A stretch of DNA of 64,000 nucleotides from NCBI RefSeq assembly GCF_000027125.1, contig NC_017626.1. One strand, 5' to 3'. This document shows positions 41,205-50,324 of the stretch, piece by piece. Both the position numbers and the translations under genes were made by a program. The notes beneath the pieces are model-generated. The model saw only the letters and a program-made list of their open reading frames with translations, searched no databases and was not told the origin of the DNA. The first letter of the stretch is position 1; the number at the start of each line of letters is the position of its first letter. The stretch is from Escherichia coli 042. GTDB lineage: Bacteria > Pseudomonadota > Gammaproteobacteria > Enterobacterales > Enterobacteriaceae.

Positions 41205-41516
41205 TCACTCCTGCCTCCCAATCATATCCCCAAGAAACCTTTTTCCTCGTAATTTTAATCTTGCTTTATCTTCAATGCTAATATTCGATAATTGTAATAT
41301 CAGTCCTAATATTAACTCCTTATCTACCTCTTCTACTTTACAGCCCATAGCTTTAGCTACCTCAGCACCAAGGATGATCTTCAAGCGTGTCTCTGCGCTC
41401 TTGGATAGAGATTTTTCTTTACTCTTAAGGCGATTCAGACGCATTTGAGCTGATGCTATTTTTTGCTTAATGGTTTTTTCTGATCTCGGCTTTCTACCTT
41501 TATCATCCGTATTCAT
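41205..41516 (-). CDS. Small basic protein, TraD/MobC-like relaxase accessory candidate
   Basis: 103-aa ORF with motif ETRLKIILGAEV resembling the TraD-type (R/K)TRRKI.LGG signature; divergent from the relaxase gene; SD aggaaaag. Confidence 0.5.
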   Translation of the reverse strand: MNTDDKGRKPRSEKTIKQKIASAQMRLNRLKSKEKSLSKSAETRLKIILGAEVAKAMGCKVEEVDKELILGLILQLSNISIEDKARLKLRGKRFLGDMIGRQE

Positions 41517-41633
41517 AATTACTTTTCCTTCTAGTTGTCAAAAACATGGAATACAATTAAAAAAGGAAAAGGTCAAACCATAGGCAGAAGGTTGAATACT
41601 TTTTATTCCAGATTAAATAACGCAGCGCGAGAT

Positions 41634-41693
41634 GATTGTTCAAAACAATCACATTGCTGGAACAGGGTTCATCCCTGTTAATGATAGGATTCA
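41634..41693. repeat. Copy A of a repeated element of about 58 bp with two internal inverted repeats
   Basis: gattgttcaaaacaatcacattgctggaacagggttcatccctgttaatgataggatt; nearly identical copy at 56962-57018. Confidence 0.7.
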
Positions 41694-42124
41694 TCTCAAA
41701 AAATGATGTTTTGGTTTTAAAAATATGATATTAGTAAGCTCAAAATAAAAACATGCAACACATACGAATGCAGTCACTAACATTAATTACCTGATACTCT
41801 CCGCGTTACTTATTTTATTGAATCAATGAAAACAATTTTACCTCTTGCTTTTTGACTCTGATTTCTGGTCTTAACCTGTGAATTGTGCAACACATAAAAG
41901 TATTTATAATTTTCACTATTTATTTTAAATTCTGCTTTCCCGCCTTACGGCGAGAGACTAATTTAACTACTTTTGCCCTTACGGGCGTTTTCTAAACACC
42001 AGAATCCAATATTATTATCCTACCTCAACCGTTTATCCGATTCCTACCTTTTTAATTTCACAGTCTGTAAAACTAGAGCTATTATTTAACTATAGAAAAA
42101 CATAAAACATTGTCGTTATTTTTA

Positions 42125-42351: not shown

Positions 42352-43860
42352 ATGGCTATTTTTCATCTGGATTTTAAAATTGTGAAACGTTCTGAAGGCA
42401 GATCTTCCGTTGCGAAAGCTGCCTATCATGCTCGTACACGTATAACAGATGAAAGAACAGGTGATACCTATGATTATAGTCGCCGTACCGATTTATACGG
42501 ACATTTCATATTAGCACCAATTAATGCTCCAGAACATATCGTGAAAGACTCTACAGCATTGTGGAATGAAGTTGAAAGAGTTGAGCGCCAGAGCAATGGT
42601 CAAACATCCCGTTATTTCGATGTTGCCATACCTGCCGAGTTAAACAATGACGACAAGAAAAGACTTGTCCTTGAGTATTGTCAGAAAAATTTCGTTGATA
42701 AAGGCATGATTGCCGATATCGCTTTCCACGATCTTGATAGCGATAATCCTCATGCTCACGTTATGTTGACATTAAAAACCATAGGCCCTGAAGGTTTTGG
42801 TAAAAAAGAAAGAAGCTGGAACGACAGAAAAATGTCTGTTATATGGCGTGAATCATGGGCATCTATGGCTAACAGCTACCTTGCTGCCGCTGGCTCGTCA
42901 GAACGTATTGACCATCGTTCTCTTCAGGCCCAGCATGAAGAGGCATTAGAAAAAGCGGCGGTAGCTTTAGATAATGAAGAAAAAGCGCTATGGCTTGCTA
43001 AAGCCGCTGAAACAAACCGTCCTCCAATGAAGCGTATCCATAGTGCCAAATGGCGTAGTAAAGCAGCACAAGAGCAAAGAGCAGCAGAACAGGCTGTTCG
43101 TGATGCTGCCAAGCAGGAAGCGGTTGAAGTCTACAAGACTTTCAGCGAACTTGATCTTGAAATCGTCGTTGATGTCAGAAGCTTCACCGTGGCTGCTCTT
43201 GCTGAACCAGAAGAGATTGTATTACCAGAAACGCGCTCCGGCTCTTCTTCTCATGAAGCACAAAGTCCTGTATTGGTAGCGCCTATTCCTCATACTCATG
43301 TGCGTGGAGTTAAATCTTACCGCGATAAAGAAAAAGTGAGTAAAGTTGTCATTAATAATATATCAGAACCAAATGTTGCTGATGCTGACATAAACACTCT
43401 TTGGAAAACATCTCCATCTAAAACCAAAAATATGGCATCCAAAAGTACCGCTGAAAGTGTTAAAAGGAAACAGGCTAATCCGCGTCAGGATAATATCTTT
43501 AAACGCTTTACAACGCTTTTGATCGGTTTCTTCAAAGAGAAATTTATATGGGCTAAGAAGAAACCTGATCCTACCGAGATTGAACATGACAGGCATGTAG
43601 CAGAAAATTACGTCTTTGATGAAGTGCTGGGTGTCTATGTATCACGCGCTGACCATGAACAACGAGCCAGATTCAACGGTGATGATAAAGAGTTCTCTGG
43701 TTACAAGCCAACACCTGATGAGATTAAGCGTTTTCCAAGCCGTCTAGCTAATACAGCACAAACTGATAGAGAGCTCGACTACATGCCTTCGCTCGTGGCT
43801 GATAAGAAATCGTTAGCACCTAAATTGAAACCAAATGCTCCCTATAAAAATAGATTATAA
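42352..43860 (+). CDS. MobA/MobL-family (MobQ-type) relaxase
   Basis: N-terminal relaxase signatures: AKAAYHARTRITDERTGDTYDYS (catalytic Tyr region), LWNEVERVERQSNGQTSRYFDVAIPAEL and the histidine triad HDLDSDNPHAHVM; SD gaggt. Confidence 0.85.
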   Translation: MAIFHLDFKIVKRSEGRSSVAKAAYHARTRITDERTGDTYDYSRRTDLYGHFILAPINAPEHIVKDSTALWNEVERVERQSNGQTSRYFDVAIPAELNNDDKKRLVLEYCQKNFVDKGMIADIAFHDLDSDNPHAHVMLTLKTIGPEGFGKKERSWNDRKMSVIWRESWASMANSYLAAAGSSERIDHRSLQAQHEEALEKAAVALDNEEKALWLAKAAETNRPPMKRIHSAKWRSKAAQEQRAAEQAVRDAAKQEAVEVYKTFSELDLEIVVDVRSFTVAALAEPEEIVLPETRSGSSSHEAQSPVLVAPIPHTHVRGVKSYRDKEKVSKVVINNISEPNVADADINTLWKTSPSKTKNMASKSTAESVKRKQANPRQDNIFKRFTTLLIGFFKEKFIWAKKKPDPTEIEHDRHVAENYVFDEVLGVYVSRADHEQRARFNGDDKEFSGYKPTPDEIKRFPSRLANTAQTDRELDYMPSLVADKKSLAPKLKPNAPYKNRL

Positions 43861-46046: not shown

Positions 46047-46601
46047 TTACCGGGCTTGCCAACCGTTATTGATTTTCACCAGAACAATTTTGGCTTCTTC
46101 TGGTTCAGACATCCCTTTCACGCCAGAGAAGGCATTTTTATCAACCCAGCCCGGCACGCCATCCAGTTTCCACGTATAGGTCACTTGCGTCATTTTAACG
46201 CCATTACCCTCACTCGGTTCAGTCCAGCTTTTAACCTCAGCTACGGCACGGTGACCAACACAGGCACCATCTTTACGATCCCAAAACTCAACCTCTTGGC
46301 CTTTGTCTGTTACTTCCAGAACATCTACGCTGCTAAAGCCGTTAGGTTGCTGCGAAACATCAAGCAGTCCCTGATTAGCCAGACCTTTCAAGATTTCATC
46401 ACTGGCACTGTATCCAGCAGAACGATAGCCATGGTTGACCTTAACCGGAAAACCTTTATTGAACGTAAAGTCATTGTCCTGAAGGGAGTAGCAGACCTTA
46501 GATTTTGATATATGCTCGTTTATCGCTTTCTCAAAGTCGCCTTTTTCACCGCAGCCTGATAACAACACGGCAAGTCCTGCAATGACTAAAAATTTACTCA
46601 T
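46047..46601 (-). CDS. Hypothetical lipoprotein (184 aa)
   Basis: Signal peptide with lipobox LLSGCG; SD aaggaa. Confidence 0.65.
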   Translation of the reverse strand: MSKFLVIAGLAVLLSGCGEKGDFEKAINEHISKSKVCYSLQDNDFTFNKGFPVKVNHGYRSAGYSASDEILKGLANQGLLDVSQQPNGFSSVDVLEVTDKGQEVEFWDRKDGACVGHRAVAEVKSWTEPSEGNGVKMTQVTYTWKLDGVPGWVDKNAFSGVKGMSEPEEAKIVLVKINNGWQAR

Positions 46602-47319: not shown

Positions 47320-47452
47320 ATCGATCGATATAAAACAAATGATAGACTCAGGCTATCATAGATAATATATCGATCGATAATATCAATTAAAAAACCGATC
47401 GATAAATCACTTTCAATCGTTAATGCCTATCAATATAAATTTATCGATCGAT
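47320..47452. repeat. Four copies of palindromic (A)TCGATCGAT(A), each with a GATC site, plus an IR TGATAG-N7-CTATCA
   Basis: Copies at 47320-47330, 47369-47379, 47395-47404 and 47442-47452 in the divergent intergenic region. Confidence 0.75.
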
Positions 47453-47529
47453 TTTACAGATCATTTTGCTTGAGTATGTTGGCACTGGCGGCTATGCTGG
47501 GCTGAGATAAAGCAGTAAAACAGAGAGGG

Positions 47530-47985
47530 ATGAGCATGGAAAACAACAACGAGCGAAGCTCTATGGAAATCTTCGAAAAAGATCAAAAAATCGCTTTTGT
47601 TGACTCGTTCAGCGATGCTGCTTTGTCTTACGAATACGAACAGGCGGGCTTCACCATTAATTTAATGCAACGCTCGGTTCTTCTCTTTAACCATAATATA
47701 AAGAAAAACGTAACTGCCAAGCAGTTGCGTAAAAATAATATAAAGAATAACGTAATGTCTTCGACATTGCGTAAAAATATGAACAGCACATTTATATATT
47801 CATATAACAACATCAGGGAAATCAACTACTCGCTGCCTGATTGCAGATCCGATGATGCCGAGAACTGTATTATGATTGATGATGTATTAAATCCAGTCTG
47901 GACGTTCAGGGTTCCATCTCACGCACATTATATTTGCGAGCAATGGGTGGAAGTATTTAATAACCATATTTTCTTTGACCCATAA
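47530..47985 (+). CDS. Hypothetical protein (151 aa)
   Basis: ORF with SD gaggga; AT-rich. Confidence 0.55.
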   Translation: MSMENNNERSSMEIFEKDQKIAFVDSFSDAALSYEYEQAGFTINLMQRSVLLFNHNIKKNVTAKQLRKNNIKNNVMSSTLRKNMNSTFIYSYNNIREINYSLPDCRSDDAENCIMIDDVLNPVWTFRVPSHAHYICEQWVEVFNNHIFFDP

Positions 47986-48110
47986 ACAAAGTATTAAGCA
48001 AAAGGAAAATAAATATCTGACTAATGATATTAATTAATAGAATTATTTGCTTTTTAGCAAATTAATGTTTAATTATATACACATAGAATAATTGATATCG
48101 AGGTATATTT

Positions 48111-48581
48111 ATGTCTGGGAAAAATCCTTTTTGGAATTATGATTATAATGCGGCGCAACGTAATAGAGAAATTGTAGACTCTTACCAACAGGCAAATGAG
48201 GCAAGGCTGGATTCTCAACAGGCGCAGTTTGAAGCGTCTATGGCTAATGACAGGGTTAGCAGAATACAGATGCAGTTGAATAACACAATCAATAGCCATA
48301 AGAAGGTTGTGGCTGATTATGAGCAACGTCTTGAAGAATATAAACAAAATTTCTTTCGTGTAGCTTTACATAAAAACATTCTCTTCAGAACGGTTCGCAG
48401 ACTTCAGGAGGAATGGCCGGATAAAAATGAATTCATCCTTGATGAAATGCAAAGACAAAGAATTTTGTGTAATCAGCAGGACTATAGAGAAAGATGGTGG
48501 AATGCCATAAAAGATAATAATCTTGCTGACGATTATCTTGAGTTTCCATTTCCTAATAGAGAGATAAAAAACAAACCATAA
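48111..48581 (+). CDS. Hypothetical protein (156 aa), predicted coiled-coil
   Basis: ORF with SD gaggta; Gln/Arg-rich heptad-like sequence. Confidence 0.55.
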   Translation: MSGKNPFWNYDYNAAQRNREIVDSYQQANEARLDSQQAQFEASMANDRVSRIQMQLNNTINSHKKVVADYEQRLEEYKQNFFRVALHKNILFRTVRRLQEEWPDKNEFILDEMQRQRILCNQQDYRERWWNAIKDNNLADDYLEFPFPNREIKNKP

Positions 48582-48695
48582 TAAGTAATTAACTATTCGT
48601 TCATAACATTATATTTATTTTAATAAGACACTAACCTGCTGTGTCTCCTAAAAACACGCCTATACATCAACCATCCATTTTATGGAATACTCATC

Positions 48696-48974
48696 ATGAC
48701 AACTACTTTGCATCCAAATTACGTTGTTGTATCAAAGCTAATATCTAAGTTTGACATTACACATGATAGTAGAGATGAGAATATTAATATCTTGATTTCT
48801 GTCATTTATGACTTGGATAACGGCAATACAATCGAATACTACATTAATAATCAGGAAGAGGCCGAGAAAAAATGCATTGAGAAAAACAGATTTTCAAGGA
48901 AATTTAAAAACCGCATTGATAATATATCACCTGAAGAAATCCGCTCGGCTAAAGATAATCACAAACCCAAATAA
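48696..48974 (+). CDS. Hypothetical protein (92 aa)
   Basis: ORF only; weak SD. Confidence 0.4.
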   Translation: MTTTLHPNYVVVSKLISKFDITHDSRDENINILISVIYDLDNGNTIEYYINNQEEAEKKCIEKNRFSRKFKNRIDNISPEEIRSAKDNHKPK

Positions 48975-49097
48975 TAAATTTGAACTCAGGATGGAACTAA
49001 TGTCTATACCGTATAATGTATTGATTTTGTGCACAGGAACGATTAAAACTATGATGTTATTGCTTGTATTCTTTACCACAAACATTAGGGAAATCGC

Positions 49098-49505
49098 ATG
49101 TCTGATGCTTTAAAGATCATCAACAATATTCGTACTCTCCGTGCTCAGGCTCGTGAACTGACACTCGAAACCTTGGAAGAGATGTTAGAAAAACTCACTA
49201 TCGTTGTAGAAGAACGTCGTGAAGAAGAGGCCTCATTTCTAAAACAGCAGGAAGAGAAACAGGCCAAGCTGGAAGCATTCCGTCAGAAGTTGTTGGAAGA
49301 TGGCATAGACCCGGCAGAGTTGCTTTCAACTGTTAGCCCATCTTCTTCCAAGACAGGAGCGAAACGCGCCCCACGTCCAGCTAAGTATAAATATGTTGAT
49401 ACCGATGGTTCGGAAAAGACGTGGACAGGTCAGGGCCGAACTCCTCGTGCTATCGCTGCTGCGCTCGAAGCCGGTAAGACACTGGAAGATTTCGAGATCA
49501 AGTAA
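49098..49505 (+). CDS. H-NS family nucleoid-associated protein (island-encoded paralogue)
   Basis: 135 aa; [33 protein letters not shown]... and C-terminal DNA-binding motif TWTGQGRTP, very close to recalled H-NS/StpA. Confidence 0.9.
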
Positions 49506-49517
49506 TCTTCATACCAT

Positions 49518-50066
49518 ATGTCTACCAAATCCGCTCATTTTTCTTGGGCGGGTTTGTTGAACCAACCTACAGGGATTAACATGCCAATAAAAGAGTTCTT
49601 AATTATGAAATCAAAAGCCTTTATTAACTTCATGCGCACTGAACTAAAAAACACATTTACAACTTCTCCTTGCGAAAATAAATTAAGAAAGGCTATTTTT
49701 ATTTTTTCTTTATTAAATGCCTTAAATATCATAGGTTATTACATCCTCACATATAGTATGCAAATCCTGTTCCTGTTGCCTATTATTTGGGGAGGGTTAT
49801 TAGCACACGGGACTTACAAACGCTATGGAGATTTGCTTAGATCTGGTTCTGATTGTGCTCTTTTTCTGGTGGCTACTATTACATCAGCATATCTCGTCAT
49901 TAACACAGCAAGTGATGATGTCGATTTTTTTGAAAAGCATATGATAAATGGATTAGGTTTTTTGATTACATATGTTTTTGCTGTAGCTGCATCCGTTCGT
50001 TTTTATATCAGTGCAATAGATTTATATAATAGCTTTATTTCTTTTAAAAAATCAAAAGAAAAATGA
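49518..50066 (+). CDS. Hypothetical membrane protein (about 160-182 aa)
   Basis: Hydrophobic segments; start codon uncertain. Confidence 0.45.
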   Translation: MSTKSAHFSWAGLLNQPTGINMPIKEFLIMKSKAFINFMRTELKNTFTTSPCENKLRKAIFIFSLLNALNIIGYYILTYSMQILFLLPIIWGGLLAHGTYKRYGDLLRSGSDCALFLVATITSAYLVINTASDDVDFFEKHMINGLGFLITYVFAVAASVRFYISAIDLYNSFISFKKSKEK

Positions 50067-50324
50067 AATCACTCATCCTTAGAGTCCATATCTGCCCTGA
50101 GGATGATATACCAAAATACATGTATAAAGATAAACAATAAATTAAATGCATAAACCTTTTGATTCATTGCTATTAAGTTCACAAAAACACTCACAATAAG
50201 AAATAAATAGTTCTTTTTTCTATGTTCTTTTAGATACCTGATGAATAACATAATAACCTCCATATTGAAAATATGGAAATTATTTAACATCTATCATTAA
50301 TAAGTCAAGGCAGTCTACAGGAAT

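Follow-up and report, generated by a model that had tools for sequence, protein, structure and literature searches.

The H-NS-Family Protein H-NS2 of Escherichia coli EAEC 042 and the AT-Rich ssrA Island That Encodes It

Third H-NS homologues shift which horizontally acquired genes a pathogen silences, and they can rescue the loss of H-NS. The stretch of DNA analyzed here (64,000 nt of Escherichia coli 042, contig NC_017626.1; hereafter the window) encodes an H-NS-like protein at positions 49098-49505, and the question that it raises is whether this protein is such a silencer and whether it would act on the genes of the host or on those of the DNA that carries it. The first-pass annotation, made from the letters alone, had taken it for an island-encoded, full-length paralogue of H-NS. 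As shown below, the role of the protein itself has already been established in the literature, and we add no new biology to it; the added value of the analysis is the genomic context of its gene.

Identification of the H-NS Homologue

The open reading frame and the ribosome-binding site in front of it are as follows:

49087-49091, plus strand: Shine-Dalgarno-like AGGGA, 6 nt before the hns2 ATG, read from the sequence
49098-49505, plus strand: hns2 CDS, ATG start, 135 codons and a stop, for an Hfp-clade H-NS-family protein (WP_001278198.1, EC042_2834)

The 135-aa product contains both halves of the H-NS family, an N-terminal oligomerisation domain and a C-terminal DNA-binding domain with the TWTGQGRTP/QGR AT-hook-like motif. 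Pfam (PF22470 and PF00816) assigns residues 1-77 to Histone_HNS_N (E 6.1e-25) and residues 96-134 to Histone_HNS (E 2e-16), and the structures matched in the PDB are the N-terminal domain of H-NS (3nr7, E 1e-25) and the C-terminal domains of StpA and H-NS, with E-values ranging from 1e-25 to 1e-12. The family match is far beyond chance, and the description of the product as a full-length H-NS-family protein of 135 aa is borne out by the reading frame, both Pfam domains and the PDB matches. The DNA-binding motif TWTGQGRTP, which had been pointed out in the first-pass annotation, lies intact at residues 108-116.

The protein aligns end to end with both NCBIfam equivalog models, H-NS (NF008193; E 1e-53, 180.9 bits) and StpA (NF007656; E 8e-50, 168.5 bits), yet its scores stay below the respective cut-offs of 211 and 202, and it is therefore neither H-NS nor StpA proper. 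By BLAST it is 64% identical to K-12 H-NS, 53% to StpA and 75% to the Hfp of the serU island, for which the reference was taken from the UPEC-like strain A0 34/86. The gene is identical over 408 of 408 nt to a CDS of strain 4/1-1 annotated as WP_001278198.1, and a CDS of isolate AHB1 has the same accession. Prieto et al. (2018, mSystems, PMC5861252) assigned this accession to H-NS2, which is encoded by EC042_2834 of EAEC strain 042, and published for it a similarity of 64.4% to H-NS and of 52.99% to StpA and a leucine at position 21; the BLAST identities to both proteins and L21 in the window agree with these values. By accession, identities, L21 and promoter geometry, we found no difference at the protein level from H-NS2 of EAEC 042. 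On this match, the product of 49098-49505 is H-NS2, a known and experimentally studied protein, and the original finding was correct but not new.

Residue Conservation and Placement in the Hfp Clade

We aligned H-NS2 with K-12 H-NS and StpA (NC_000913.3) and with three island-borne homologues, taking the functional roles of the H-NS residues, including the five basic linker residues and the dimer-dimer interface, from PMC7544231. The dimerisation residues R12, R15, L26, L30 and L33 are all kept, and so are K57 and the T110-P116 stretch with Q112, G113 and R114. A loss of DNA-binding residues, which had been named beforehand as evidence against a functional protein, is thus not what the alignment with H-NS, StpA and the island homologues shows. 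The differences from K-12 H-NS lie elsewhere: position 21 is L instead of C21, a residue specific to the H-NS clade (PMC7544231); position 117 is R117, where H-NS has A117; and the dimer-dimer interface has F and K at positions 61 and 64, versus the Y and M of H-NS. In the linker, three of the five basic residues are present (K89, R90 and R93), while S83 and G87 replace K83 and K87, and therefore the DNA binding of H-NS2 may differ from that of H-NS. According to Prieto et al. (PMC5861252), only a subset of H-NS genes is targeted by H-NS2. H-NS2 has its architecture of two domains, its dimerisation residues and its QGR motif in common with both K-12 proteins, whereas it differs from H-NS in L21 and the fewer basic linker residues, and in being accessory.

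In a neighbor-joining tree of 54 sequences rooted with StpA as the outgroup, and with HlpC and plasmid Hpp sequences left out, H-NS2 grouped with Hfp-type proteins, apart from H-NS, in 189 of 200 bootstrap replicates. Fitzgerald et al. (2020, PMC7544231) placed the EAEC 042 protein under Hfp and noted that hfp was renamed hns2 in that strain. By the 75% identity to Hfp versus 64% and 53% to H-NS and StpA, by the tree, by L33 and by the published listing, H-NS2 belongs to the Hfp clade. Position 33 is altered in all StpA proteins, and L33 is likewise not retained in HlpC (PMC7544231). Identity as StpA was rejected because of the sub-cut-off score, the 53% identity and the retention of L33; membership in HlpC was set aside on L33 and on the published placement of the 042 protein under Hfp, not on a direct comparison with HlpC sequences. 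The reading in the first-pass annotation holds on every point, with a caveat on the word "paralogue" alone: Fitzgerald et al. (2020, PMC7544231) argued that Hfp-type proteins are horizontally acquired homologues and not true paralogues of hns.

Published Function and Promoter of hns2

The checks that had been proposed for this gene are already in the literature, namely alignment with H-NS and StpA, a dendrogram including Hfp, complementation of hns and transcriptomics (PMC5861252, PMC7582179). In an MG1655 hns background, cloned hns2 restored the growth rate, and an hns hns2 double mutant did not grow at 25 °C (PMC5861252, PMC7582179). By RNA-seq, H-NS2 affects a subset of the H-NS-repressed genes, including genes elsewhere in the 042 genome (PMC5861252), and its overexpression lowers the expression of H-NS-repressed genes (PMC5861252, PMC7582179). 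H-NS2 hetero-oligomerises with H-NS (PMC5861252), and pulldowns with H-NS2 recovered H-NS, Lon and Hha (PMC5861252, PMC7582179). H-NS represses the gene, and an hns mutant shows up-regulation of H-NS2 (PMC5861252, PMC7582179); its transcript is about 80-fold below that of hns (PMC5861252). H-NS2 has been detected in FLAG-tagged form, and phenotypes of mutants have been described (PMC5861252, PMC7582179). Repression by H-NS2 was better at 37 °C (2020, Sci Rep, PMC7582179), whereas the Hfp of strain 536 is described as acting mainly at 25 °C; because the temperature dependence reported for these two relatives disagrees, extrapolation within the clade is not safe.

The published promoter has a -10 box that ends in C and a G start located 7 nt downstream of this box and 41 nt upstream of the ATG, and in the window TAAAAC together with G49056 alone satisfies both distances:

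49021-49026, plus strand: -35 hexamer TTGATT, at an inferred position 17 nt upstream of the -10 box
49044-49049, plus strand: -10 hexamer TAAAAC, placed from the published description
49056, plus strand: G, the transcription start as placed from the published 5' RACE

Selection in hns mutants yields a C>T substitution at the final base of the -10 box, with which H-NS2 expression increases. The weak promoter, including the final C of the -10 box, was invariant in all 13 related loci compared. A generic promoter scan did not report the hns2 promoter, which it missed because the -10 box ends in C. A perfect TATAAT is located at 49012-49017, 32 nt upstream of the weak -10 TAAAAC, and going by the published 5' RACE this is apparently not the promoter in use.

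A Conserved Gene Module around hns2

Three small genes upstream of hns2 (47530-48974) had been described in the first-pass annotation and are all present as described, and so is the open reading frame downstream, the membrane nature of which is probable from its hydrophobic sequence:

47530-47985, plus strand: small conserved ORF, first gene of the module upstream of hns2 (RefSeq start 47536)
48111-48581, plus strand: conserved 156-aa ORF, with only a marginal Pfam match to Nmad5 (E 6e-4)
48696-48974, plus strand: conserved 92-aa ORF
49518-50066, plus strand: variable, probable membrane ORF (182 aa); its start lies 12 nt past the end of hns2
50325-51575, minus strand: TraW-like protein
51949-54609, minus strand: DotA/TraY-family protein (NCBIfam TIGR04346, 419.7 bits, cut-off 100)

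Searches against Pfam, NCBIfam, PHROGs and the PADLOC families returned no match for the first of these ORFs and nothing convincing for the 92-aa ORF or for the ORF at 49518-50066. The 156-aa ORF was compared with the gene for DUF4756 in front of hfp on the serU island, and identity with it was ruled out (E 0.40).

In all 13 variants of the locus, three lipoprotein/membrane genes, the three small ORFs, hns2, the TraW-like gene and the DotA/TraY gene are kept, and the cargo that flanks this conserved block changes between variants: an ABC three-component system, ApeA, a (retron-like) reverse transcriptase with TIR, and Lamassu-like, SAVED/CBASS-like, DUF4238 and DUF4365 genes. The DotA/TraY and TraW-like genes adjoin hns2 and are conserved, on an island without the rest of a type IVB secretion/conjugation system.

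The ORF at 49518-50066 behaves differently. Its product is probably a multi-pass membrane protein, as read from its hydrophobic sequence, and hns2 and this ORF are possibly co-transcribed because there is no terminator-like site between them. The ORF is absent from the variants SaT040, EC0026B, L011, L012, L014, L015, L017 and L018 and present in some others. Many E. coli islands of this kind lose their homology to the window within about 30 nt past the stop codon of hns2 (49505-49535). This suggests a recombination breakpoint just after hns2, beyond which the membrane ORF has been replaced or is absent.

The ssrA Island and Its Mobility

The claim that the gene is island-encoded is confirmed: hns2 lies on an AT-rich island of about 26.4 kb that is integrated in the 3' end of ssrA and contains mobilisation genes. 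The GC content of the island is 37.7% versus 50.7% in the flank. Gene content follows what RefSeq annotates in a locus 99.9% identical to this one, together with our own profile searches, and an Rfam scan of the island reported the tmRNA only:

35384-35746, plus strand: ssrA (tmRNA), the integration target (ARAGORN; Rfam RF00023, 292.8 bits)
35733-35739, plus strand: attL, left crossover core CGCCAGC, inside the ssrA 3' end
35913-37142, plus strand: tyrosine integrase, CP4-57 IntA-like, 49% identical to K-12 IntA
37188-38501, plus strand: DUF3644/PDC-S19 candidate defence gene (PADLOC PDC-S19, E 2.5e-68)
38836-39801, minus strand: type II-like DNA methyltransferase (E 1.4e-102)
41205-41516, minus strand: traD-like gene (annotated by RefSeq in the 99.9% identical locus; homologous loci match Pfam TraD)
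42352-43860, plus strand: MobQ-family relaxase
46047-46601, minus strand: SEN1982-family lipoprotein, a ROD21 backbone gene (by annotation)
58423-58662, minus strand: truncated H-NS homologue of 79 aa with the N-terminal oligomerisation domain only, annotated as H-NS family
60281-60499, minus strand: small HTH protein at the position of SEN1998-type excisionases (RDF), by annotation; putative role from position only
60655-61521, minus strand: DUF6387 protein, conserved end gene common to the serU, IE3 and pheU-side islands
62112-62118, plus strand: attR, right crossover core CGCCAGC, marking the right end of the island

The junctions were placed by comparing the island with its family member in the yaeI gene of EC0026B and with the intact yaeI of K-12. 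No long direct repeat of the ssrA 3' end turned up on the far side of the island when up to 3 mismatches in 23 nt were allowed, and the island ends share only the 7-nt core CGCCAGC. The related island, with an integrase 85% identical to that of the window, sits inside yaeI in E. coli EC0026B/EC0026B_R1, at a pseudo-site, CCTCCCGCCAGC, resembling the end of ssrA; its junctions lie at 1580-1600 and 32340-32355 of L010 (NZ_OX460336.1). By these junctions the yaeI insertion is a case of secondary-site integration. From the comparison of the yaeI copy with the intact yaeI it follows that the island in the window measures about 26.4 kb and that the family has moved by site-specific recombination. 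The circular attP junction is predicted as …ACAGGGACGCCAGCTCCACCACTTTTTAG…. The genome of EC0026B_R1 (NZ_OX460336.1), a laboratory derivative of EC0026B, has hns2 in two places.

On its right side the island ends before glaH. There is no annotated gene between the last island gene and glaH (61860-62800), where the right junction falls, and a coding-like stretch on the minus strand at about 62260-62800 is possibly a gene remnant. On the left side, the position next to the integrase (37188-39801) holds variable cargo, and in sister islands it is occupied by different defence systems, among them the ABC three-component, ApeA, reverse-transcriptase/TIR and Lamassu-like genes.

The truncated gene at 58423-58662 and full-length hns2 lie in opposite orientations on the same island (minus and plus strand, respectively). 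The product of the former is 83% identical to H-NST of the EPEC island IE3. Among the residues whose roles in H-NST have been described (Ala16, which is essential, and R60 and R63; PMC3897749), it keeps Ala16 and has K at positions 60 and 63 instead of R60 and R63. We regard it as a putative H-NST-type antagonist of H-NS.

Distribution and Selection

A megablast search of the 2.9-kb region around hns2 (47400-50300) against 5426 complete E. coli genomes found it in 77 of them, on chromosomes only; with close alleles in 77/5426 complete genomes, H-NS2 is accessory in E. coli. The exact protein is present on at least 1000 contigs, and the cluster at 90% covers Klebsiella, Citrobacter, Salmonella, Cronobacter, Enterobacter and Raoultella. 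The same region gave no megablast match to the plasmids of PLSDB, and in a protein-level search the true plasmid homologues were at most about 63% identical to H-NS2; on these two results a plasmid origin of the hns2 allele was rejected. The single plasmid hit with 75% identity was a 4.8-Mb chromosome mislabelled as a plasmid. Pairwise comparison of three hns2 alleles (the window, SaT040 and EC0026B) gave dN/dS values of 0.03-0.11, the differences being mostly synonymous, and hns2 is under purifying selection. Because hns2 is carried by an ssrA-integrated, ROD21-like mobilisable island together with an H-NST-type gene and swappable defence cargo, its spread in E. coli, Klebsiella, Salmonella, Enterobacter, Citrobacter and Cronobacter is patchy.

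Discussion

The account that we favor, and consider very probably correct, is that hns2 encodes a full-length silencer of the Hfp clade on a mobilisable, AT-rich ssrA island, a weakly expressed co-silencer and backup that is itself repressed by H-NS. The N-terminal coiled-coil domain would form homo-oligomers as well as hetero-oligomers with the H-NS of the host, and the C-terminal QGR AT-hook-like motif would bind the minor groove of AT-rich DNA. Expression would be driven by the gene's own weak sigma-70 promoter (TTGATT-N17-TAAAAC) under repression by H-NS, at about 80-fold below hns. H-NS2 would in this way co-silence a subset of what H-NS targets, chiefly genes of horizontal origin, and on loss of H-NS it would serve as a dosage-sensitive backup. 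The biochemical and genetic steps have been published for this exact protein, and the same behavior in the window follows from sequence identity; any specific role of H-NS2 in the control of its own island we infer.

Such a role is at the center of a different explanation, according to which H-NS2 would be primarily a "stealth" or maintenance factor of the island, like Sfh on R27, which coats the incoming island, spares the titration of H-NS and controls the genes of the island (excision, transfer, defence cargo) and not those of the host. The low GC content of the island compared with its flank is consistent with this, as are the retention of the hns2 module in 13/13 variants while the surrounding cargo varies and the invariance of the weak promoter, and reviews have proposed such a role for EARL-encoded homologues (PMC6035254, PMC7074111). 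However, the effects of H-NS2 in the published RNA-seq extend to genes elsewhere in the 042 genome, and about 80-fold less transcript than that of hns means little protein for buffering. As the primary role of H-NS2 we consider this possible but not probable, and it would be compatible with the co-silencer and backup explanation and not exclusive of it.

What may be less documented, and is possibly undescribed, is the context of hns2: the ssrA site, the CP4-57-like integrase, the H-NST homologue encoded on the same island and the conserved four-gene hns2 module; the words "island" and "ssrA" are absent from both H-NS2 papers (PMC5861252, PMC7582179). A more far-reaching proposal, which we think unlikely and put forward as speculation, is that the ssrA element represents an undescribed lineage of ROD21-like mobilisable islands with a CP4-57-type integrase and a conserved core module, in which H-NS2 and the H-NST-type antagonist would form a silencer/anti-silencer switch over excision, transfer or the variable anti-phage cargo, beyond the backup of H-NS.

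That H-NS2 itself could be an anti-silencer, a dominant-negative protein that breaks H-NS filaments in the manner of H-NST or Ler, might be suspected from its hetero-oligomerisation with H-NS and from the F and K at the interface positions 61 and 64, but its DNA-binding domain is complete and its dimerisation residues are intact, for the role of antagonist the island has another gene, truncated and of the H-NST type, and the published complementation of the hns mutant, together with the lowered expression of H-NS-repressed genes upon overexpression, largely refutes this very improbable reading. A silent or decaying remnant without a function in the host, which the mosaic nature of the island (other versions hold frameshifted genes, e.g., a traD pseudogene in strain 4/1-1) and the low expression could suggest, is already refuted by the published FLAG-tagged protein and mutant phenotypes, and the intact reading frame, the low dN/dS and the exact protein on so many contigs leave it next to no probability.

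Comparison with Related Islands and Plasmids

Hfp (H-NSB) of UPEC 536 and CFT073, encoded on the serU island, belongs to the same clade as H-NS2, and the islands are related in MobQ, DotA/TraY and DUF6387; like the ssrA island, the serU island also has a truncated H-NS gene. Nevertheless, Hfp differs from H-NS2 at a quarter of its residues, the integration sites are serU versus ssrA, and the positions of the two genes are different, hfp following RepL and DUF4756, and hns2 following three unrelated small ORFs near the TraW-like and DotA/TraY genes.

The EARL (ROD21-like) islands and IE3 of EPEC have traD, the MobQ relaxase, the SEN1982-family lipoprotein, the small HTH gene and DUF6387 in common with the ssrA island. 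In ROD21-like islands SEN1998 is the RDF (PMC8844411), and the HTH gene of the window was counted as an RDF-like member of the backbone by its position, not by comparison with SEN1998. The GC content published for EARL islands is 35.7-39.2%, compared with 37.7% in the ssrA island, and EARL islands likewise contain full-length and truncated H-NS homologues, in opposite orientations. The shared backbone, the low GC content and the presence of both types of H-NS homologue are thus found here, whereas integration in an Asn-tRNA gene, which defines EARL islands (PMC7074111), is replaced by integration in ssrA, and the integrase is not the P4-like enzyme of the ROD21 type, being 32% identical to the integrase of the Asn-tRNA island of MB51 (an island with a ROD21-like backbone, the comparator used in place of SEN1970 of ROD21) versus 49% to CP4-57 IntA. 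The ssrA island lacks the type-IV pilin genes that many EARL islands typically have, and contains DotA/TraY and TraW-like genes instead. In lacking EARL-defining features the ssrA island is much like the serU island (PMC7074111).

Sfh/HppH of IncHI plasmids (R27, pSf-R27) are also full-length, horizontally carried homologues on AT-rich mobile DNA for which a stealth role has been proposed, but published phylogenies (PMC7544231) put the plasmid homologues in a clade different from that of Hfp, and they are at most about 63% identical to H-NS2.

Between traD and mobQ, in what is likely the oriT region, lies an 83-nt sequence (41622-41704) that recurs at 80-85% identity about 15 kb away, at 56950-57032 and 57091-57131, upstream of an ORF (57693-58391) at the position that is held by RepL in related islands. 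The recurring sequence, with the inverted repeat TGATTGTTCAAAACAATCA inside it, could be a duplication of oriT or else a site bound by a protein.
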